Source: Patescibacteria group bacterium
GTDB lineage: Bacteria > Patescibacteriota > Doudnabacteria > UBA920
DNA: 64,000 bases
NCBI GenBank assembly: GCA_036726225.1
Contig: DAIMCS010000001.1
Coordinates: 188,885 to 252,884, forward strand
Direction of reading: 5' to 3'
The notes beneath the pieces were generated by a model. That model ran no database searches and was not told the origin of the DNA. It worked only from the letters and a program-made list of their open reading frames with translations. The position numbers were made by a program, and so were the translations under genes. Shown here in pieces: positions 2,112 to 63,513 of this stretch (within the stretch, counting starts at the first letter, position 1; each line of letters opens with the position of its first letter).

Positions 2112-4391
2112 TTACGATTCGTCTTCCTGTATTCCATATTCCGCCTTCTCGTCGGGCGGCACCACACCATACACCTCCCTGGGTTTTGCGCCTTCACCCG
2201 GGCCAATTACCCCTTTGGCTTCCAAAATATCCAGCAGCCTTGCCGCGCGGGCGTAACCCACCCGCAAGCGCCTTTGAAGCAACGAAGCCGAAGCCTTGCC
2301 CGCGCGCTTAACTTCTTCCATAGCTTCTTGCAGGAGCGGATCGTCATCGCCGTCACCGCTGTCCCCTTCTAACCCCGGGATTCCCAGGGCCCGCTTTGGT
2401 TTTTCTAAAATTTCTTCGTTGTAAATGACTGCGCCGGTCTGCTGCTTAAAGAAATCCACAACTTTTTTAACTTCCTTTTCACCAATGTAAGCGCCCTGGA
2501 CTCTTTTGGGTTTGTTAAATTCTGCCGAGGTGTAAAGCATATCGCCGTTGCCCAAAAGTTTTTCAGCTCCCGAGGAGTCTAAAATTGTGCGGCTGTCTAT
2601 TTGGCTGGCGACGGCAAATGCAATTCTGGAAGTGATGTTGGCTTTAATAAGTCCGGTAATAATATCTACAGACGGCCTTTGGGTGGCCAGCACTAAATGG
2701 ATGCCCACAGCGCGCGCCATTTGGGCCAAACGCACAATTGCGGCTTCCACTTCTGCCTGGGCCACGGACATAAGGTCTGCAAGTTCGTCTACCAAAATTA
2801 CAATGTAAGGCATAGACAAACCGGATGCTTCGTTGTACTCCACAATATTCCTTTTACCGACTTCGGACAAAAGCTTATAGCGGCGGTCCATTTCCGCCAC
2901 TGCCCATTTGAGCGCATTAACTGCTTTTTCATTTTCCGTTACCACAGGCGTAAGCAAATGCGGAATGCCGTTATACGGTGTCATTTCCACGCGCTTTGGG
3001 TCAATAACAATAAACTTAACGTCCTGCGGCGTGTTCCTGTAAAGCAAGCCAATGAACAAGCTGTTAATAGCCACGCTTTTGCCCGTGCCGGTGGCGCCGG
3101 CAATAAGCATATGCGGCATTCTGGCCAAATCTACTATAATTGGATGTCCGGCCACGTCCCTGCCCAAAGCCAAAGCCAGTTTGCTTTTGTAATCCACAAA
3201 TTCAGCTGTTTGCATAACCTCGCGTAAGCGCACAATAGCCGTAGATTTGTTAGGCACTTCTATGCCGACTAAGGCTTTACCCGGAATTGGCAGCTCCATA
3301 CGGATGCTGTGAGCGGCAAGGGCAAGCGCAAGGTCGTTTTGCAAAGCCGCAATTTGCGAAAGCTTAACTCCCACTGCCGGGCGCAAAGTGTACTGGGTAA
3401 CTGTTGGTCCCACGTTAACTTCCCCCATTTCCACCTCTATCCCAAAATCCGCCAAAGTCTTTTTTATAACCGCGACATTCACTTCTATGTTGCCGCTGTC
3501 CACGGCGGTTTGGTTGTCGTCGAGCAAATCAAACTGCGGCAGCTTCCAGTCTTTGCGGTCTTGCACTGTCATGGCATCTAACTGCGGAGACTTAATGGTT
3601 TTTGTCTGTATGGTTTGCGAACTGGTTTTACTTTCCGCTTCATTAGCAACTTTTGGATTTTTCTCTAACACCTTTTCTTCCAAAAACCCGCTTTGGCCCA
3701 TAGCGTTAATTTTCAAAACCGGCTGCTCCAAATTATGGACAACCGGCGCCTCTGCTTCTTTCGGCTTTTCTTGTCCGTCTTCTTTCTTCTCCCAGAGTGA
3801 CTTAAGCGACACGTCAAAAATAATTAACAGGCTAATTACAATGAGCGCCACTAAAATTAAGCTGCCCGCCCAAAAACCCAAAAACGAAAACAGCGGACTG
3901 GAAACTGCGGCGCCTAAATAGCCGCCACCCCGGCCTTCTGATGCAATTTCAAAAGCGCTTAAGCCCGAATTTAAATAAAAAATATGAATAAGTCCGCCCA
4001 GGCCGACGCAAAGCAAAACCGCGCCCAAATAAATCCTTAAATAAAAACTGTGGTGCTTGCTCTCTTCATTTAAATCCTGTTTGTACAACGACACAGCAAC
4101 GCTTAACAAAATTAAAGGCACTAAGTAGGCCATTAGCCCGGACGCCCAGGAGAGGCCTTGGAAAAATTGCCGGCCGAGTGAGCCCGCCAGCCCTGCCAAA
4201 CTTAAAAGTGAAACTAAAGCCAAAGCAGTAAACACCACCACCATTATGCCGCGTTTGGTTTCAGGGGAGAGGTCGAGTTTGGGCTTGTTCCTTTTCTTCT
4301 CAGCTTTTTCCAGCTTTTCTAATTTTTCCAATTTTTGCAGCTTTTTTTTGTATCTGTCCATGAATAATTTCCTTATAGTTTCCCTCCCCAA
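2112..4391 (-). CDS. ftsK: DNA translocase FtsK/SpoIIIE
   Basis: 759 aa; N-terminal TM helices, Walker A GATGTGKSV, C-terminal winged-helix gamma domain (LLQEAMEEV...RLRVGYARAARLLD). Confidence 0.9.
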   Translation of the reverse strand: MGRETIRKLFMDRYKKKLQKLEKLEKLEKAEKKRNKPKLDLSPETKRGIMVVVFTALALVSLLSLAGLAGSLGRQFFQGLSWASGLMAYLVPLILLSVAVSLYKQDLNEESKHHSFYLRIYLGAVLLCVGLGGLIHIFYLNSGLSAFEIASEGRGGGYLGAAVSSPLFSFLGFWAGSLILVALIVISLLIIFDVSLKSLWEKKEDGQEKPKEAEAPVVHNLEQPVLKINAMGQSGFLEEKVLEKNPKVANEAESKTSSQTIQTKTIKSPQLDAMTVQDRKDWKLPQFDLLDDNQTAVDSGNIEVNVAVIKKTLADFGIEVEMGEVNVGPTVTQYTLRPAVGVKLSQIAALQNDLALALAAHSIRMELPIPGKALVGIEVPNKSTAIVRLREVMQTAEFVDYKSKLALALGRDVAGHPIIVDLARMPHMLIAGATGTGKSVAINSLFIGLLYRNTPQDVKFIVIDPKRVEMTPYNGIPHLLTPVVTENEKAVNALKWAVAEMDRRYKLLSEVGKRNIVEYNEASGLSMPYIVILVDELADLMSVAQAEVEAAIVRLAQMARAVGIHLVLATQRPSVDIITGLIKANITSRIAFAVASQIDSRTILDSSGAEKLLGNGDMLYTSAEFNKPKRVQGAYIGEKEVKKVVDFFKQQTGAVIYNEEILEKPKRALGIPGLEGDSGDGDDDPLLQEAMEEVKRAGKASASLLQRRLRVGYARAARLLDILEAKGVIGPGEGAKPREVYGVVPPDEKAEYGIQEDES

Positions 4392-9211: not shown

Positions 9212-9307
9212 GTTTGATATATAGGTTCCTAGGGTTCCCAAAGATCAGGGATTTTTGGGACAAAAGAGCAGCGTCCAAAGCGAACGAAGTGAGGACGATT
9301 GACCCGT

Positions 9308-9397
9308 GGCGGAGAGGGAGGGATTCGAACCCTCGATGCCCTTGCGGACATAGCAGTTTTCGAGACTGCCCGATTCAACCACTCTCGCACCTCTCCG
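9308..9397 (-). tRNA. tRNA-Ser(CGA)
   Basis: rc sequence GGAGAGGTGCGAGAGTGG...CTCGAAA...long variable arm...GGTTCGAATCCCTCCCTCTCCGCCA; anticodon loop CTCGAAA. Confidence 0.85.
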
Positions 9398-9660
9398 CGT
9401 CGCAACTTGCTACGAGCCATCGGAATTAACTAAAGTTAATTCCTCAAACTCTCCGCAGTTGCTCCTTATCCCAAAAATCCGTGCTCGTCCAGACAAAGCC
9501 CTGGACTGCGCTCCTAATTTTTGGGAACCCTAAGTGGCTCCCCTTATTATAAATTAAAAACCGCCTATTCTCAATACGGAACTCTTGATAGATCACCCTA
9601 ATATATGTTATATTCAGCCAATCTAAATAGGGTACCAACCACACACAAGGGAGGAAAACA

Positions 9661-14957: not shown

Positions 14958-15073
14958 CTCCCAAAAATACTGATGAGCATTCACAAAGGTATTTTTGGGA
15001 AAGACGAGCGCCCGCGGAGAGCGAAAGTCCCGATTTTTAAATCGGGACGTGAGCTCGGAGCAAGGCGCGAGGA
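14958..15073 (+). ncRNA. Structured tRNA-leader element (copy A) immediately upstream of tRNA-Pro
   Basis: cccaaaaat-hairpin-atttttggg module, then GGAGAGCGAAAGTCCCGAT-loop-ATCGGGAC-GTGAGCTCGGA enclosed by outer stem gcgcc/ggcgc. Confidence 0.5.
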
Positions 15074-16046: not shown

Positions 16047-16206
16047 CCCGTTAGAAGTCTTAATTTTTTTTACGAAAGATTAAAATTTTATCAAAGTCTA
16101 TTTTATTTGGACGCCGCTAGTGGTTTGTAACAAACTTCTAACGGGATCCATGGTGTAATTATACCAAATAAGTTTTTATTTTTGCTCCCCGCCCGCCTGA
16201 CTTGTC

Positions 16207-16281
16207 TGGTGACCTCGGCTGGAATTGAACCAACATCAATAGCTTAGGACGCTACTGCTCTATCCGTTGAGCTACGAGGTC
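16207..16281 (-). tRNA. tRNA-Arg(CCT)
   Basis: rc GACCTCGTAGCTCAACGGATAGAGCA...anticodon loop GTCCTAA...GGTTCAATTCC...CGAGGTCACCA; embedded between imperfect inverted repeats cccgcccgcctgac / gtcaggcgagtcgggcggg. Confidence 0.65.
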
Positions 16282-16478
16282 GTCAGGCGAGTCGGGCGGG
16301 TATCCACTCCGACGTTCAACAAAGTTGAAGTCGGAGCCCCGACCGCTTGCGCGTCGGGGTTGAGCCTGCCTGCCAGCAGGCAGGCTACGAAGGCCAAAGA
16401 CACCAAAAAATTATACCATAAAAAACGCCCCTTATGATAGAATCATTAGGGGCCGATTTTTTGAGATTTTGACACTAT

Positions 16479-37123: not shown

Positions 37124-37280
37124 TATAGTATCCAGGCAAGTTATTCTCGGTCTGGCTTCAGTTACAATTTAAACTTGAGCAATGCTACAAAATAGCAGGT
37201 TTAAATTGAGAGGAACATTTTACGGAGCAGCTGAAATTTTGATGCAGTCAAAATTTAACGCGCGGAGAAAAGTGCGACGA

Positions 37281-37357: not shown

Positions 37358-37504
37358 TGAACCATTCGCTCCGCTCAGGTTCATGGCACGCCATAAGCGT
37401 GACATGGAAAATAGAGCGAGTGTTCATGCCCTGACACCCGAACGAAGCGAGTGGTTCAGGGCACGGGTCAACCACCTCTCATTACGTTCAAGGTGCTGCC
37501 CCTT

Positions 37505-37685
37505 ATCCCAAAAATGCCTCCGGCATTTTCGGGAACCCTCAATGAAATCCAAACCGCAAAAACGAGTAGCGCAGCTCCGACGTTTCAGTCGGAGCGAGCA
37601 CGCGTTTTTGTGGAAGAGGAGTTCGTGATGGAGAGCGAGAATCCCGATATTAATCGGGATGAAAGCTCGGAAACACGAACGACTA
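37505..37685 (+). ncRNA. Structured tRNA-leader element (copy B) upstream of tRNA-Phe
   Basis: cccaaaaat hairpin, internal caaaaacg-hairpin-cgtttttg module, GGAGAGCGAGAATCCCGAT-ATTA-ATCGGGATGAAAGCTCGGA core, outer stem gttcgtg/cacgaac. Confidence 0.55.
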
Positions 37686-37837: not shown

Positions 37838-38016
37838 TTCCCAAAAATGCTAATAGCATTTTTGGGAACCCTCAATGAAATCCAAACCGCAAAAACGAGT
37901 AGCGCAGCTCCGACGTTTCAGTCGGAGCGAGCACGCGTTTTTGTGGAAGAGGAACAACTGCGGAGGGCGAGAGTCCCGATTGAAGATCGGGACGAAAGCC
38001 CGGAGCAAGTTGTGAC
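37838..38016 (+). ncRNA. Structured tRNA-leader element (copy C) upstream of tRNA-Gly; shares an identical approx. 85-nt segment with copy B
   Basis: ...GGAGGGCGAGAGTCCCGAT-TGAAG-ATCGGGACGAAAGCCCGGA core, outer stem acaact/agttgt. Confidence 0.55.
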
Positions 38017-38090: not shown

Positions 38091-38282
38091 AAAGAAAACG
38101 CCTCACCCCTTGTGGGTGGGGCGGTTTCTTTTTTAAGAAGGCACGAGGGGAATCGAACGGGTTGAAGTGAGGCCAGACCGCTTCAGCAGAAGCGGTAGCA
38201 GCCGAGCGATCGGGAATGCGAGCTGGCGCAGCATTCCCGCAACCCCGGGCTACGAGCGAGCCTGCAGGCGAGCGAGGACGAA

Positions 38283-38301
38283 ATTCCCCTTAGCCGCTCC
38301 A
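38283..38301 (+). other. 19-nt direct repeat of tRNA-Gly 3' end (att-like scar or tRNA fragment)
   Basis: attccccttagccgctcca identical to 38072-38090; preceded by a leader-like remnant (cgagcgatcgggaatgcgagc) and followed by a terminator hairpin. Confidence 0.6.
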
Positions 38302-38507
38302 AAGAAAAAACTATCACTTTATGTGGTAGTTTTTTCTTTGGTTAGGATAAGCTTGGGACCTTTTCCCTCGAGCGCAGCGAGACCCCGACCTTCTCGTCGG
38401 GGTTAGCCGATCCTTAAAACCCAAAAAGCAAAGTCGAAGGACCCACAAAAAGAGTTTGACTAAGGATGATTTTTTATATAAATTTAGCCAAAAGGAGGAG
38501 TTTACAA

Positions 38508-40884: not shown

Positions 40885-41053
40885 GCTCCCAAAAATGCAA
40901 TGCATTTTTGGGAAAGAGGGGCAGCATCCCAAACGAAGTGAGTCCCGACTTGTCGAGACGAACACAGTGCGGGATGAATGACCCGTGGAGGGGTTTTAGT
41001 TTGGCTATTGAATTAATAGTGCTTTTTGATTAAAATGTATTAGTTATACAAAT
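40885..41053 (+). ncRNA. Structured tRNA-leader element (variant D) upstream of tRNA-Cys
   Basis: gggctcccaaaaatgcaatgcatttttgggaaagagg...gaagtgagtcccgac...cgggatgaatgacccgtgg. Confidence 0.45.
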
Positions 41054-41130: not shown

Positions 41131-41204
41131 CGGGTCAATCGTCCTTCACTCATTCATTTTTGACTGAAGTCAAAAAATTCATTATGTTCAGGACGTTGCC
41201 CCTT

Positions 41205-41396
41205 CATCCCAAAAACGCGTGCTCTCCCGACAAAAGTCGGGATGCGCTCCACGTTTTTGGGAGGTCTATATAACAAATCCTCAGCTCAAAAAAGGGCTCT
41301 CAAAAATGCAATGCATTTTTGGGAAAGAGGAGTTCGTGACGCAGAGCGTAAATTCCGACGTTAGTCGGAATGCAAGCTCACAGGCACGAACGACGA
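41205..41396 (+). ncRNA. Structured tRNA-leader element (copy E, two cccaaaaa/tttttggg modules) upstream of tRNA-Leu(TAA)
   Basis: ...GCAGAGCGTAAATTCCGAC-GTTA-GTCGGAATGCAAGCTCACAGG core with compensatory changes in the hairpin relative to copies A-C; outer stem gttcgtg/cacgaac. Confidence 0.55.
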
Positions 41397-55970: not shown

Positions 55971-57143
55971 CTATTTGATTTTTAAAAATCTTTTACCCAA
56001 ACGAAACAAATCGCCGGAAGCAATTTTTACACGGGCATTCTCATCGGTAATTTTTTGCTGATTATGGTTGACCGCGCCTTCTTTAATTTTCCGCCTGGCT
56101 TCCGATTTAGACGAAGCCAGCTTGCCTTCAACTAAAATATCCAGCAAAATATATTCGCCGTCTTTCTTGCTTAAAACCACATCCGGCTCTATTTCTGAAG
56201 ATGAATTTTTCCCAAATTTTTTCCCAAAATTTTCTTTAGCTTGGGCTGCTATTTTGCCGCCATAATACAGCTCTGTAATTTTTTGGGCCAAAACTAATTT
56301 TTGGTCGCGTGGGTTTGCGTTCGAACGCAATATGCCGTCTATTTCCCCGAGTGGCACGCGGGTAGCCAAAATAAAATACTTTTTTATTAAGTCATCGCTA
56401 ATGGACATAACCTTGCCAAACATATCGTTGGGCTCATCTGTCACATTAATAACATTGCCCCAGGAAGAGGACATTTTTCGGCCGTCCGTGCCTTCTAAAA
56501 TCCCCATCATCAAAATATCTTGGGGTTCTTGGTTGTACAGGGGTTGTATGCGCCTGCCGGCCAAAAGATTAAACCTTTGGTCCGTACCGCCTAATTCTAA
56601 ATCAGCCTTAACAGCAACCGAATCGTAACCTTGAAGTAAAGGATACATAGCTTCGTGAAGCGATACCCTTTGCCCGGCCTTCATACGCCTGGCAATAATT
56701 TCACGTGATTCCATTTCATGCAGCCCAAACAGGTTAGCGAGCTTGGCGAGTTCAAAAAATCCTAACTTATTCAGCCATTTGGAATTATAATGAACCTCGG
56801 TCTTTTTCTTGTCCAAAATTTTGTAGGCCTGCTCAAAATATGTCTTCATATTTGCTTTAACTTCTGCTTCTGTAAGCATAGGACGCTCTGAATCTTTGTC
56901 TGAAGTATCACCCACAAGGCCTGTGGAGTCACCAACAATAAACACCGCCTGGTGACCGGCGTCCTGAAAAGCGCGCAATTTTAAAAGCAAAACCGCCCGG
57001 CCAATGTGGATGTTTTGGGAGGTGGGGTCTATGCCCAGTTTTACTCTAAGTTTCTTCTTTGAAACCAGCTGCCGCTCTAAATGATGGTAATCTATAACCT
57101 CTTCCACCCCGCGGCCCAAAAGTTCTGCAATAGGATTATTCAT
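55971..57143 (-). CDS. tyrS: Tyrosine--tRNA ligase
   Basis: 390 aa; class I; KMSSS motif; C-terminal S4 domain. Confidence 0.85.
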   Translation of the reverse strand: MNNPIAELLGRGVEEVIDYHHLERQLVSKKKLRVKLGIDPTSQNIHIGRAVLLLKLRAFQDAGHQAVFIVGDSTGLVGDTSDKDSERPMLTEAEVKANMKTYFEQAYKILDKKKTEVHYNSKWLNKLGFFELAKLANLFGLHEMESREIIARRMKAGQRVSLHEAMYPLLQGYDSVAVKADLELGGTDQRFNLLAGRRIQPLYNQEPQDILMMGILEGTDGRKMSSSWGNVINVTDEPNDMFGKVMSISDDLIKKYFILATRVPLGEIDGILRSNANPRDQKLVLAQKITELYYGGKIAAQAKENFGKKFGKNSSSEIEPDVVLSKKDGEYILLDILVEGKLASSKSEARRKIKEGAVNHNQQKITDENARVKIASGDLFRLGKRFLKIK

Positions 57144-61651: not shown

Positions 61652-62131
61652 TCATCTTTTCAGCCTTATAACCACTTTCCTATAAGGTTCGTTGTCTATG
61701 GAGGAACTTTCAACTTCGGGGTGGTGTTCCTGCAAATACGCGTGGACTAATCTTCGTTCATAGTTCGGCATGGGTTCTAACGCCTGCGCCCTGCCCGTCA
61801 TCTTCAACTTTTCCACTGCCGCCTTAGCCGTTTCTTTTAAAAACCATTCGCGCTTTCTTTTGTAGTCATCGACATCCAATGTAAACCAAAAGGGCTGGGT
61901 TGTGTCATTGGCATTAAATTTCTTTGCAGCTAAAGCTTGGGCTAAAATTTGCAGAGAATGCAAAGTTGCGCCCTGACGGCCAATTAAAAGGTAAGAGTCG
62001 GGTGAAGAAATGTTAAAGACCAAACCTTTGGTAAGACTCTCTTCGAATTCCACACTTCCCAAAATCCCGGCCTTTTGTAAAATTTCATTTATTATTTGTT
62101 TTACCTGTTCAATCTTATTATAGTCAGTCAT
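61652..62131 (-). CDS. jag: Jag/KhpB RNA-binding protein (KH + R3H)
   Basis: 159 aa; R3H motif near C-terminus; downstream of yidC. Confidence 0.75.
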   Translation of the reverse strand: MTDYNKIEQVKQIINEILQKAGILGSVEFEESLTKGLVFNISSPDSYLLIGRQGATLHSLQILAQALAAKKFNANDTTQPFWFTLDVDDYKRKREWFLKETAKAAVEKLKMTGRAQALEPMPNYERRLVHAYLQEHHPEVESSSIDNEPYRKVVIRLKR

Positions 62132-62198
62132 TGGATCGGAATTATGAATTATGAATTATGAATCAGGGGATACGCCCATAATTCCTAATTCTTACTTC

Positions 62199-62903
62199 CT
62201 AATTCACCTTTGGCTGTTTTCTTATTATATAGTACTGCTGGGCTACGGCAAAGAGGGTGGTAACTATCCAGTAAAGCGGCAAACCGGCCGGCAGCTTCAT
62301 AGCAATAACCACGCTTATTACCGGCAAAACGTAAGTGGTTTGCAATTGCATAGCTCTCATTGTAGTGTCTTGGCCGGTAGTTTTGGGCATCATTAATTTC
62401 GATTGCCAAAATTGGGCAAGACCGGCAATTACGCCTAACACAATACTCGGTTTGCTTAGGTCCAAAAGATTTAAAAATCTAGGGTCTAAATTTGCCGGAT
62501 GCATAACAAAGTTATACAAACCGCTTAAATTATTGTTCAAAGCTTTGCTGAAAACCTGGTAGAGCGCAATTAAAATTGGCAGCTGGACGAGCAAGGGCAA
62601 ACACGAGGAAAGCGGATTAATTTTATGTTCCTTGTACAGTTCCATCATAGCTTTGGCCTGGGCTTCCTTGTCGTGCTTGTGTTTTTCGCGGACCTCATTT
62701 AATTTAGGCTGCAAATCGTTCATTGCCTTTTGGCTCTTAAGGCTTTTGTGGAAGCTTGGCGCCAACAATAAACGGATAAGCAAAGTGACAAGAATAATTA
62801 CAATGCCTATGTCGTGCCCGGGAATGACATTGTAAAAAAACACCAACAGGTTAAGTAGGGGGCGGTAAATAACTTCGTTGTACGCTAAGGTAAGAAAAGA
62901 CAT
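62199..62903 (-). CDS. yidC: Membrane protein insertase YidC (short form)
   Basis: 234 aa; Oxa1-family core. Confidence 0.85.
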   Translation of the reverse strand: MSFLTLAYNEVIYRPLLNLLVFFYNVIPGHDIGIVIILVTLLIRLLLAPSFHKSLKSQKAMNDLQPKLNEVREKHKHDKEAQAKAMMELYKEHKINPLSSCLPLLVQLPILIALYQVFSKALNNNLSGLYNFVMHPANLDPRFLNLLDLSKPSIVLGVIAGLAQFWQSKLMMPKTTGQDTTMRAMQLQTTYVLPVISVVIAMKLPAGLPLYWIVTTLFAVAQQYYIIRKQPKVN

Positions 62904-62910
62904 AAAGGGA

Positions 62911-63183
62911 TTAGGATTTAGGGACTAAATCTACGCTTGGCTCTGCCCAGGGATGACATTTGCTTAGTCTTTTTAGGCTTAAATACAGTCCTTTAATTAA
63001 ACCAAATTTTATTACAGCTTCTTTAGAATACTGGCTACAGGAAGGGTAATGGCGGCAGTAACCATAAGGAAAACGTGCCCGAAGCCAGCTGTGGTCAGGC
63101 GAAAGCAAAAATTGATAAACATTAATTAACATTACAATAATGTTTTTAGGGAGGTTAATTAATTGTTTAAAAAACTTTTTCAT
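62911..63183 (-). CDS. yidD: Membrane protein insertion efficiency factor YidD
   Basis: FPYGYCRHYPSCSQYSKEAVIKFG motif. Confidence 0.8.
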   Translation of the reverse strand: MKKFFKQLINLPKNIIVMLINVYQFLLSPDHSWLRARFPYGYCRHYPSCSQYSKEAVIKFGLIKGLYLSLKRLSKCHPWAEPSVDLVPKS

Positions 63184-63186
63184 AAA

Positions 63187-63513
63187 TTATTTTACTTTAC
63201 TGCAAAGCTCGGAAAATGCGTTTAAAATTTGTTTTTCCGGAGACGAGCTAATTTTTTGCCTGGCAATTATTGTATAGTCGCCGTTCTTAAACAAATTTAA
63301 ATTTTTCCTTACAAATTCCCGAACCAATCTTTTAAGCCGGTTTCTCTTGACCGCCGATTTAAAAATTTTGGTGGAAACCACTACGGTAAAACGTTTACCC
63401 TGAGGCCTGCTCAAAAATTTTATGCTGAAAAAAGGGTTAAAAAAAGCCCGCCCTTTTGCAAAGACTGCCTTCAGGTCCGTTTCCTTTGCAAGACGGTTTT
63501 TCTTATGGAGCAT
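63187..63513 (-). CDS. rnpA: Ribonuclease P protein component
   Basis: 108 aa basic; RNR motif region NRLKRLVREFVR. Confidence 0.8.
   Translation of the reverse strand: MLHKKNRLAKETDLKAVFAKGRAFFNPFFSIKFLSRPQGKRFTVVVSTKIFKSAVKRNRLKRLVREFVRKNLNLFKNGDYTIIARQKISSSPEKQILNAFSELCSKVK

Follow-up and report, generated by a model that had tools for sequence, protein, structure and literature searches.

What occupies the long segments that stand directly 5' of several tRNA genes in a genome of the Patescibacteria, when the leaders of bacterial pre-tRNAs usually count as short and disposable stretches without conservation? We asked this of a 64,000-nucleotide stretch of contig DAIMCS010000001.1 (the window), whose host is a soil bacterium of the Candidatus Doudnabacteria group; the PRPP synthase encoded in the window has homologues at 58-83% identity in metagenome-assembled genomes (MAGs) labelled Candidatus Doudnabacteria, while several other MAGs carry the label uncultured Candidatus Saccharibacteria. 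A preliminary description had proposed a structured RNA at 14958-15073, before tRNA-Pro, and at further tRNA genes. We indeed found there a short hairpin, HP1, and then the proposed core, a longer hairpin here called the rod, set against tRNA-Pro (Table 1). The rod is a genuine, previously uncatalogued covarying RNA motif, and the best reading of HP1 and rod together is a novel, dispensable, repeat-like structured pre-tRNA leader cassette that would be released by RNase P.

The rod is a 72-nt irregular, unbranched hairpin. From its foot, the closing pair P0 is followed by a tandem G.A/A.G 2x2 junction, the helix P1 (6 bp, a bulged A and 2 bp), a 3x3 loop (GNA/GNA), the helix P2 (invariably 4 bp), a 4x4 loop (mostly GNRA/GNRA) and the helix P3 (8-9 bp) with a variable terminal loop. 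The core consensus first reported, its outer stems (gttcgtg/cacgaac, acaact/agttgt and gcgcc/ggcgc) and the compensatory changes in the copies then lettered C and E could all be read in the sequence. For a quantitative assessment we aligned 22 distinct copies, six from the window and 16 from related metagenome or MAG contigs, which were found with two covariance models (R1 and R2). Canonical pairs filled 97.6% of the base-pair cells across 21 pairs, 20 of these pairs had changed on both sides (115 cells), and none of 500 column shuffles attained any of five covariation measures. Sliding the 3' partners by 1-3 columns left only 25-46% of the cells paired. Since this alignment had been fitted to the model, the test was repeated on a structure-blind MAFFT alignment of 20 copies, which gave the same architecture with compensatory changes in 14 of 17 predicted pairs. 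RNAalifold, applied to a MAFFT alignment of nine copies, likewise returned the structure of the hand-drawn model. The structure is thus kept by compensatory substitution, as had been proposed.

The helices are free in sequence. P3 exists in at least five unrelated versions (UCCCGAU, UUCCGAC, GGAAUUAAC, AUUUUGAU and UUUUUUGCC) and P1 in more than six. The P2 pair 21-68 covaries among GC (9 copies), AU (7), UA (3) and CG (2). Eight unpaired positions do not vary at all among the 20 copies in alignment A4, namely A4, G6, A7, G17, A19, A29, G94 and A95, and G70, G82 and A84 are nearly invariant. These bases are placed where G.A/A.G pairs would flank every helix junction, and we infer that they form sheared G.A pairs. 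G-U and U-G pairs outnumber A-C and C-A mismatches (10 against 4), folding of the sense strand is favoured by 3-6 kcal/mol over that of the antisense strand, and all 22 copies lie on the strand of the tRNA. Together, these three observations point to selection acting on a transcript of the tRNA strand.

The motif matched no described family. Searching Rfam 15 (4227 models) at gathering thresholds returned only tRNA matches in the whole window, and relaxing the cut-off to E <= 10 gave no match over any rod, HP1 or trailer hairpin (module T, below), save chance matches of miRNA type. Full-text searches of the literature brought up no description of such a tRNA-leader motif, so that the novelty first suspected still stands, as far as it can be tested. 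The broad kind, repeated structured hairpins in spacers and leaders, is familiar; the target site is without precedent.

We then looked at how the rod is joined to the tRNA. Of the 22 copies, 21 abut a tRNA, which confirms the location in the pre-tRNA 5' leader, and the remaining one (L003a, on one of the related contigs, which carry L numbers here) abuts a second complete unit that itself abuts tRNA-Gly. All model matches with E < 1e-9 in the ~470 kb searched (window and related loci) were on the tRNA strand and abutted a tRNA or a second unit that does. The gap of 0-6 nt given earlier did not hold up: in 19 of the 21 tRNA-adjacent copies, exactly 2 nt separate the closing pair from tRNA +1, the exceptions being the Gly copy of the window, which stands directly against tRNA +1, and a degenerate copy in L038 with a 4-nt linker. 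Among the 19 copies with a 2-nt linker, position -2 is G in 18 and U in the Phe copy of the window, and G never occurs at position -1, which is A, C or U. The fidelity of RNase P site selection would favour avoiding G at -1.

The window also encodes a protein of the enzyme in question. A rnpA-yidC-jag(KH/R3H) cluster in its classical order lies at 61652-63513 (-), and its rnpA (63187-63513, -) is the protein subunit of RNA-based RNase P. The presence of rnpA leads us to expect a canonical RNase P and, with it, cleavage at the junction of rod and tRNA. No gene for RNase P RNA was found in the 64-kb window; RNase P RNAs of bacteria of the Candidate Phyla Radiation (CPR) are divergent (PMC8172020). 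Promoter-like TATAAT boxes were found 5' of whole units (Pro, Ser, L001, L002 and L003), and none between rod and tRNA at the units inspected. The whole pre-tRNA-Pro folds as a chain of independent hairpins and a cloverleaf, and the same kind of chain, with cloverleaves, is predicted for the Cys-Leu dicistron. Position, strand, promoter placement and rnpA all fit release of the rod units by tRNA-processing nucleases.

Considering these results, we tentatively favour, with slightly less than even confidence, that the rod is a shape-specific module which works in cis within the pre-tRNA leader and which RNase P removes. The two-hairpin cassette would be transcribed as the 5' leader, or as the inter-tRNA spacer, of a precursor tRNA, in which the rod would fold on its own with its foot 2 nt upstream of tRNA +1. 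Because of this spacing, a canonical RNase P would cut at the foot, freeing the tRNA 5' end together with a compact leader RNA that has a 2-nt 3' overhang. The invariant G.A-flanked loops may be a docking surface for a protein or a processing enzyme, and the rod may hold an extended leader or spacer that is not translated in a folded, inert state, with only the short RNase P junction single-stranded. The analysis establishes the fold of the motif with its covariation, its strand, position, spacing and distribution, its lack of a known family and the presence of rnpA; co-transcription, RNase P cleavage, protein recognition and the insulating role are what we infer.

A location exactly at the tRNA 5' end, with conserved purines in the loops, might also suit a self-cleaving ribozyme that matures this end without RNase P. 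Ribozymes do flank tRNAs elsewhere: HDV-like theta ribozymes are known 3' of phage tRNAs, where, as would be the case here, a cut at the edge of a structured RNA gives a tRNA end. Theta ribozymes, however, lie 3' of the tRNA and form a nested double pseudoknot, whereas the rod lies 5', is unbranched, offers no pseudoknot candidate and has no conserved terminal loop, and its invariant unpaired bases can all be explained as flanking G.A pairs. The presence of rnpA, the restriction of rods to half of the tRNAs and the varying linker (0, 2 or 4 nt) also argue against self-cleavage, and models of the hammerhead, hairpin, twister, pistol, hatchet and HDV ribozymes gave no match even at E <= 10. For the hammerhead, GNRA/GNRA surrounds P3 but CUGAUGA is absent, and the sole CTGATGAG (14970) belongs to one copy's HP1 loop, which is variable. 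For the hairpin ribozyme, only 4 bp separate the 3x3 and 4x4 loops of what is a single continuous, coaxial hairpin, which makes its kind of docking impossible, and there is no GUC/AGAA loop A. We consider the ribozyme explanation scarcely credible.

To return to the window, ARAGORN called 13 tRNAs, 12 of which are backed by Rfam. The thirteenth, a 'tRNA-His (anticodon atg)' at 56337-56424 (-), lies inside the open reading frame (ORF) of tyrS, which encodes tyrosyl-tRNA synthetase, has no Rfam support and was discarded as a false positive. Rods stand upstream of about half of the tRNA genes. The covariance models recovered six copies (E 1e-12 to 1e-22), each in sense to and abutting a tRNA, and a strict core pattern had three matches in the window against 0.00 expected in shuffles. 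Single-sequence folds returned the same rod with z-scores of -4.8 to -8.0, save for the thermodynamically weak Val copy (z = -0.9). This divergent copy was absent from the earlier list of tRNAs, from which Pro, Phe, Gly, Leu-UAA and Ser were retained while Cys and Arg were not. tRNA-Cys has no rod core but a promoter-like AT-rich stretch directly 5'; the structured element farther 5' (40888-40990) is a different module, to which the model gave only 16 bits (E = 0.57). Upstream of tRNA-Arg there was no model match at all.

The six rods also differ among themselves in ways that keep the fold. In the Pro copy a C-G closing pair takes the place of G-C, a compensatory swap. The Leu(UAA) copy shares its P1 with the Phe copy, has UUCCGAC/GUCGGAA as P3 and GCA/ACA as 3x3 loop, and the Ser(CGA) copy has another inner helix, with P3 replaced by GGAAUUAAC/GUUAAUUCC.

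Table 1. Rods, HP1-type hairpins and trailer hairpins in the window (positions count from its first letter).
Feature	Description	Position	Strand	Basis
HP1, tRNA-Pro unit	CCCAAAAAT...ATTTTTGGG, variable interior	14960..14999	+	sequence; 13-bp hairpin in minimum free energy fold of whole pre-tRNA
Rod, tRNA-Pro leader	P0-P1-P2-P3	15001..15073	+	covariance model 82.6-87.8 bits; fold z = -4.8; tRNA-Pro starts 15074
HP1-like hairpin before Val rod	AATTTAAAC...GTTTAAATT	37166..37207	+	sequence
Rod, tRNA-Val leader	divergent, P3 AUUUUGAU/GUCAAAAU	37208..37280	+	R1 33.4, R2 54.1 bits; tRNA-Val starts 37281
Extra simple HP1-type hairpin	Val-Phe spacer	37507..37533	+	sequence
HP1, Phe unit	M interior, AGTAGCGCAG-hairpin-CGAGCACG	37554..37613	+	in stretch 99% identical to copy in Gly unit
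Rod, tRNA-Phe leader	P1 GUUCGUG/CACGAAC	37614..37685	+	covariance model 70.6-79.3 bits; z = -8.0; tRNA-Phe starts 37686
Extra simple HP1-type hairpin	Phe-Gly spacer	37840..37866	+	sequence
HP1, Gly unit	M interior	37887..37946	+	sequence
Rod, tRNA-Gly leader	P1 ACAACU/AGUUGU, P2 GGGC/GCCC	37947..38016	+	covariance model 89.8-92.1 bits; z = -7.5; tRNA-Gly starts 38017
Trailer hairpin T after tRNA-Cys	CGGGTCAATC...GTTGCCCCTT, 1 nt after CCA, in Cys-Leu hairpin chain	41131..41204	+	sequence
M-type HP1, inverted	reverse complement of M consensus, Cys-Leu spacer	41208..41261	+	sequence
HP1, Leu-UAA unit	CTCAAAAATGCAATGCATTTTTGGG	41299..41323	+	sequence
Rod, tRNA-Leu(UAA) leader		41325..41396	+	covariance model 68.2-74.6 bits; z = -6.6; tRNA-Leu starts 41397
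Trailer hairpin T after tRNA-Ser		9261..9306	-	sequence
Rod, tRNA-Ser(CGA) leader		9397..9469	-	R1 48.5, R2 71.9 bits; z = -5.8; tRNA-Ser starts 9396 (-)
HP1, Ser-CGA unit	M interior	9470..9525	-	sequence

The placement of rods between tRNAs in the Val-Phe-Gly and Cys-Leu operons raises a further explanation, namely that they are signals for a double-strand-specific endonuclease of RNase III type, which would cut polycistronic tRNA transcripts before RNase P trims them. With about 30 stacked base-pair equivalents broken by internal loops, the rod resembles the irregular RNase III hairpins between early genes of phage T7, such as R1.1, and rRNA-type stalks, which are also long hairpins with internal loops in the spacers of polycistronic stable-RNA or early-mRNA transcripts, and leader/trailer stalks occur at tRNA-Arg in the same genome and at tRNA-Val in relatives. 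The rod shares no sequence or loop similarity with these systems, however, and as a local hairpin it leaves the tRNA unenclosed, so that we rejected it as an rRNA-type processing stalk. Rods are also found in monocistronic units right after the promoter (Pro, Ser), where no separation is needed, and RNase P and RNase Z alone would be able to resolve such operons. An RNase III signal is therefore very unlikely. The stalk at tRNA-Arg(CCU) (16180-16400, -) consists of a leader/trailer stem, CCCGCCCG..CCUGAC with GUCAGGCGGGCGGGG, that encloses the tRNA as in an rRNA processing stalk, with three GC-rich hairpins 5' of the tRNA; tRNA-Val in the relative L019 is flanked by similar complementarity.

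The rod is always preceded by HP1, an A/U-rich hairpin with arms CCCAAAAAU...AUUUUUGGG, and an A-rich or purine-rich linker of 3-5 nt joins the two. The arms of HP1 covary as well (CCUAAAAACG/CGUUUUUAGG, CCCAAAUUUUCC/GGAAAAUUUGGG and AAUUUAAAC/GUUUAAAUU). Its interior is either variable or of a form, M, that is conserved across species (AGGAGCGCAG-hairpin-CGAGCACG). In two spacers (window 41208-41261 and L003 ~1830-1880) the M interior is reverse-complemented, which suggests that M may have been inverted between its CCCAAAAA/TTTTTGGG arms. The rod itself is never inverted.

We next determined how far the motif extends. The strict core pattern had no matches in 185,579 GTDB species genomes and a looser one had none in IMG/VR viral contigs. 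On JGI metagenomes the looser pattern hit eight loci; two of these (L004 and L007) fell by chance in a GC-rich coding region, and two more are duplicates, L005 of L001 and L008 of L006. So far, the motif has been found only on Doudnabacteria-type contigs, from at least nine distinct genomes or contigs, and as far as these could be classified the carriers are a subclade of Candidatus Doudnabacteria. On other metagenome contigs, Ser-GCU, Ser-UGA, Gly-UCC and Asp are preceded by rods. In L006, a second tRNA-Met has a leader (2409-2477, -) in which HP1(M), the AAGAGGAGCAAG...AUUGCGACA frame and also the junction are retained around a different interior (R2 17.6 bits), and which may represent a second rod class.

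The Val-Phe-Gly and Cys-Leu operons are syntenic across relatives, with spacers of 0 to ~800 nt, and their rods are distributed unevenly. Both Phe and Gly have a rod in the window, L032, L034 and L042; Phe only has one in L035 and L040 (the L040 contig ends inside tRNA-Phe, leaving its Gly site unseen), and Gly only in L017 and L038. Across these orthologous leaders the sequence has diverged and the fold is the same, and the Phe and Gly rods persist across lineages whose PRPP synthase is only ~75% identical. The short spacers of L019 (...GCAAU-loop-AUUGCGACGU before Phe) and L026 (...UUACGACGA before Phe) look, in our reading, like deletion remnants of a rod.

Rods do not group by tRNA identity. 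The Ser rod of the window is nearest to the Gly rod of L017 (84%), the Gly rod of the window to the Ser-GCU rod of L001 (92%), and the Gly rod of L038 to the Phe rod of L042 (83%). Within genomes, Phe and Gly rods are 85% identical in L032 and 76% in L034, and the Phe and Leu rods of the window 79%. The Phe and Gly leaders of the window also share a 98-nt stretch that is 99% identical (37523-37620 and 37856-37953), while the rods directly 3' of it are unlike in P1 and P2; this mosaic suggests that gene conversion took place recently. The rod family behaves like a dispersed repeat, copied from one tRNA leader to another or homogenised among them.

Several of these observations weigh against a cis module. 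Six of the 12 genuine window tRNAs lack a rod, and so do the Val-Phe-Gly and Cys-Leu spacers of L019-L026, L031 and L036, which are 0-150 nt long; in a rough neighbour-joining tree of two proteins, rod-free relatives are interleaved with carriers. As half of the window tRNAs and many related species do without it, the rod must be an accessory and not a requirement. Related subtypes precede different tRNAs in different genomes, copies from the same genome have P1 and P2 in common, and this shuffling among tRNAs fits a selfish repeat as well as it fits a host function. An insulator alone would not need invariant G.A loops. Finally, the RNase P protein normally binds a single-stranded leader, and a helix that starts at -3 could hinder rather than help it.

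The comparative data thus show features of both a processing or regulatory element and a tRNA-associated mobile unit, the two possibilities raised in the preliminary description. As a mobile unit, the rod would belong to the selfish, non-autonomous repeats (of MITE, REP or PATE kind) and spread among tRNA 5' flanks, where an insert between promoter and tRNA +1 would be harmless because RNase P removes it. Two causes might preserve its fold: a single-stranded hairpin is what the machinery of mobility reads, or an insert that stays unfolded in an untranslated operon is deleterious (Rho polarity, tRNA misfolding). Such a repeat would account for six copies in 64 kb, the patchy occupation of orthologous sites, the tandem unit in L003, the mosaic beside unlike rods, the likeness of same-genome copies and of subtypes before different tRNAs, and the two orientations of M, and the same spacers of relatives hold LAGLIDADG genes and group I introns, as a haven for selfish DNA would. 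Like REP/BIME, MITE and PATE families, rods are short, multi-copy, imperfect intergenic palindromes; they are strand-specific, differ in presence from relative to relative, are homogenised inside a genome and can act as RNA hairpins. Those families, however, are scattered over many intergenic regions and depend on a RAYT or TnpA transposase, which reads a conserved sequence at the hairpin foot, whereas all 22 rods lie at tRNA 5' ends in one orientation, none lies elsewhere in the ~470 kb, and their helices are free in sequence. We therefore rejected an ordinary REP/BIME or MITE repeat. Scanning ~60 ORFs of the window with Pfam revealed housekeeping genes only, and no transposase, reverse transcriptase, RAYT/TnpA (Y1) or TnpB gene. 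The whole unit is not bounded by terminal inverted repeats with a target-site duplication, harmlessness alone leaves the invariant G.A-flanked loops and the exact 2-nt junction unexplained, and the persistence of Phe and Gly rods across diverged lineages also speaks against it. We consider a selfish repeat somewhat unlikely.

The most puzzling fact is the exact junction before unrelated tRNAs despite the exchange of subtypes. To account for it, selection at the RNase P site would have to be strong, or insertion or conversion would have to proceed by a mechanism that reads the 5' end of the tRNA. In an exotic variant, the cassette would move between tRNA genes as RNA, through an intermediate with an end set by RNase P, which would explain why the junction is invariant.

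Alternatively, what is produced may be the leader itself, as a stable small RNA (for example a sponge or scaffold for proteins) that uses the strong tRNA promoter and has the tRNA as its 3'-end processing signal, punctuated out by RNase P and, at an upstream tRNA, RNase Z. Once cleaved off, the rod would form a long hairpin with HP1 on its 5' side and only a 2-nt 3' overhang, and hairpin RNAs with a short 3' overhang resist 3' exonucleases. The exact spacing would define the 3' end, the conserved purine loops (three GGA-like motifs) resemble protein sites, and the M interior of HP1 is conserved across species. Non-tRNA segments that are co-transcribed with tRNAs and have their ends set by tRNA-processing enzymes, as proposed here for the rod, include the E. 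coli 3'ETS-leuZ and metZ-metW spacer RNAs, MALAT1-mascRNA, mitochondrial tRNA punctuation and plant tRNA-snoRNA dicistrons. The E. coli, MALAT1-mascRNA and mitochondrial systems are single loci without a conserved covarying multi-copy fold, are located 3' of or between tRNAs, and act by base-pairing or are the ends of long non-coding RNAs, whereas the rod is repeated, 72 nt long, at a fixed 2-nt spacing and 5' of many tRNAs. No target-pairing region is evident in the rod, which has no conserved single-stranded stretch and an unconserved P3 loop, variable HP1 interiors differ freely, and many close relatives lack the element. We consider a stable small RNA slightly less probable than the selfish repeat; both are serious rivals that partly overlap with the favoured cis module.

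We also give a low probability to a bolder version of these ideas, in which the rod would be the recognition element of an undescribed CPR pre-tRNA pathway, either because a dedicated protein, bound to the G.A-flanked rod at the foot of the tRNA, controls or licenses RNase P on a subset of tRNAs or because HP1-rod is an abundant functional small RNA. In the latter case, a 3' end made by RNase P would be a bacterial counterpart of the biogenesis of tRNA-punctuated non-coding RNAs.

A range of other known elements was compared with the rod and rejected. Archaeal bulge-helix-bulge motifs share with it two loops parted by an invariably 4-bp helix and a pseudo-two-fold symmetry. They have 3-nt bulges on opposite strands that are cut by a splicing endonuclease, whereas both flanking loops of P2 have unpaired bases on both strands and are symmetric (3x3 and 4x4) and flanked by G.A; such an endonuclease is not known in Bacteria. 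A kink-turn is not consistent with three symmetric junctions, and taking GGA as a bulge would break the covarying P2. Integron attC sites, ends of IS200/605 elements and omega RNA were rejected too, as was a T-box leader, since the rod is upstream of tRNAs and not mRNAs and there was no Rfam T-box match. The AAGAGGAG that could be taken for a Shine-Dalgarno sequence of a small ORF comprises the P0 pair, the tandem G.A and the first P1 pair; no consistent start codon follows, and the compensated C-G swap in the Pro copy contradicts this reading as well. A DNA site for a dimeric protein or LAGLIDADG enzyme does not fit helices that covary freely in sequence, and the likeness of GCGAAAGUCCCG in the Pro copy to P4 of RNase P RNA involves bases that vary between copies. 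A closing helix of the purine linker with an upstream CCUC is predicted in one copy and not conserved, and pairing of linker position -1 with the discriminator base is inconsistent across copies.

The tRNA spacers hold further modules besides HP1 and rod. A second conserved module, the trailer hairpin T (CGGGUCAAUC-stem-GUUGCCCCUU), begins 1 nt past the encoded CCA and is a long hairpin with a conserved U.C mismatch that usually continues straight into HP1. Besides the two copies in Table 1, T is found at 37464-37504 (+) in the window, after tRNA-Met in L006 and after tRNA-Gly in L003, with a short form after tRNA-Val in L034. With T on the 3' side and a rod on the 5' side, some tRNAs are sandwiched between both modules. 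A different trailer, UGAACCAKUCGCUC...GGUUCAUGGCAC..., directly follows the CCA in the window (37358-37463) and is common to tRNA-Val of the window and tRNA-Leu(GAG) of L017 (downstream, 13812). A related element containing ACGAAGYGAG lies 5' of tRNA-Cys (40919-40990). A 21-nt exact copy of the tRNA-Gly 3' end is located ~190 nt downstream (38283-38303, and 38091-38300), followed by its own terminator-like hairpin; this arrangement recurs ~110 nt after tRNA-Gly in L017, and part of the 3' half of tRNA-Ser is repeated in L002 after 7622. These copies are possibly integration scars or tRNA-like RNAs.

In relatives, free-standing ORFs resembling LAGLIDADG homing endonucleases lie inside tRNA-tRNA spacers (L017 8542-9261, -; L019 1910-2584, -; L034 9192-9866) and beside tRNA-Leu(GAG) (L042 5802-6542), with Pfam E-values of 1e-10 to 1e-11 for those of L017 and L019. 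ORFs of ~240 aa also occur 5' of tRNA-Gly in L020 and L022. Group I introns interrupt tRNA-Phe in L021 (8926-9168), L023 (9061-9333), L035 (5760-5993) and L036 (1636-1880), which is why ARAGORN misses these tRNAs. The tRNA-Phe of L040 appears interrupted too, at the point where the contig ends, and a truncated 5' half of a tRNA-Val-like gene (~3120-3170) stands directly 5' of the intact tRNA-Val of that contig.

What these results mean is set by the contrast between the usual view of bacterial pre-tRNA leaders and a conserved, covarying fold that is locked to the RNase P site of many tRNAs, in a CPR lineage known for reduced genomes. Annotators should note that the long 'intergenic' stretches found within tRNA operons of CPR bacteria are structured RNA. 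A functional rod would amount to a new layer in the maturation of tRNAs or to a small RNA of a new, tRNA-punctuated class. A selfish rod would be the first family of repeats to have specialised in the 5' edge of tRNA genes, a site that RNase P makes a safe haven. Either way, structural and biochemical studies gain a clean, testable motif of 72 nt, in which three symmetric loops flanked by G.A are nested.

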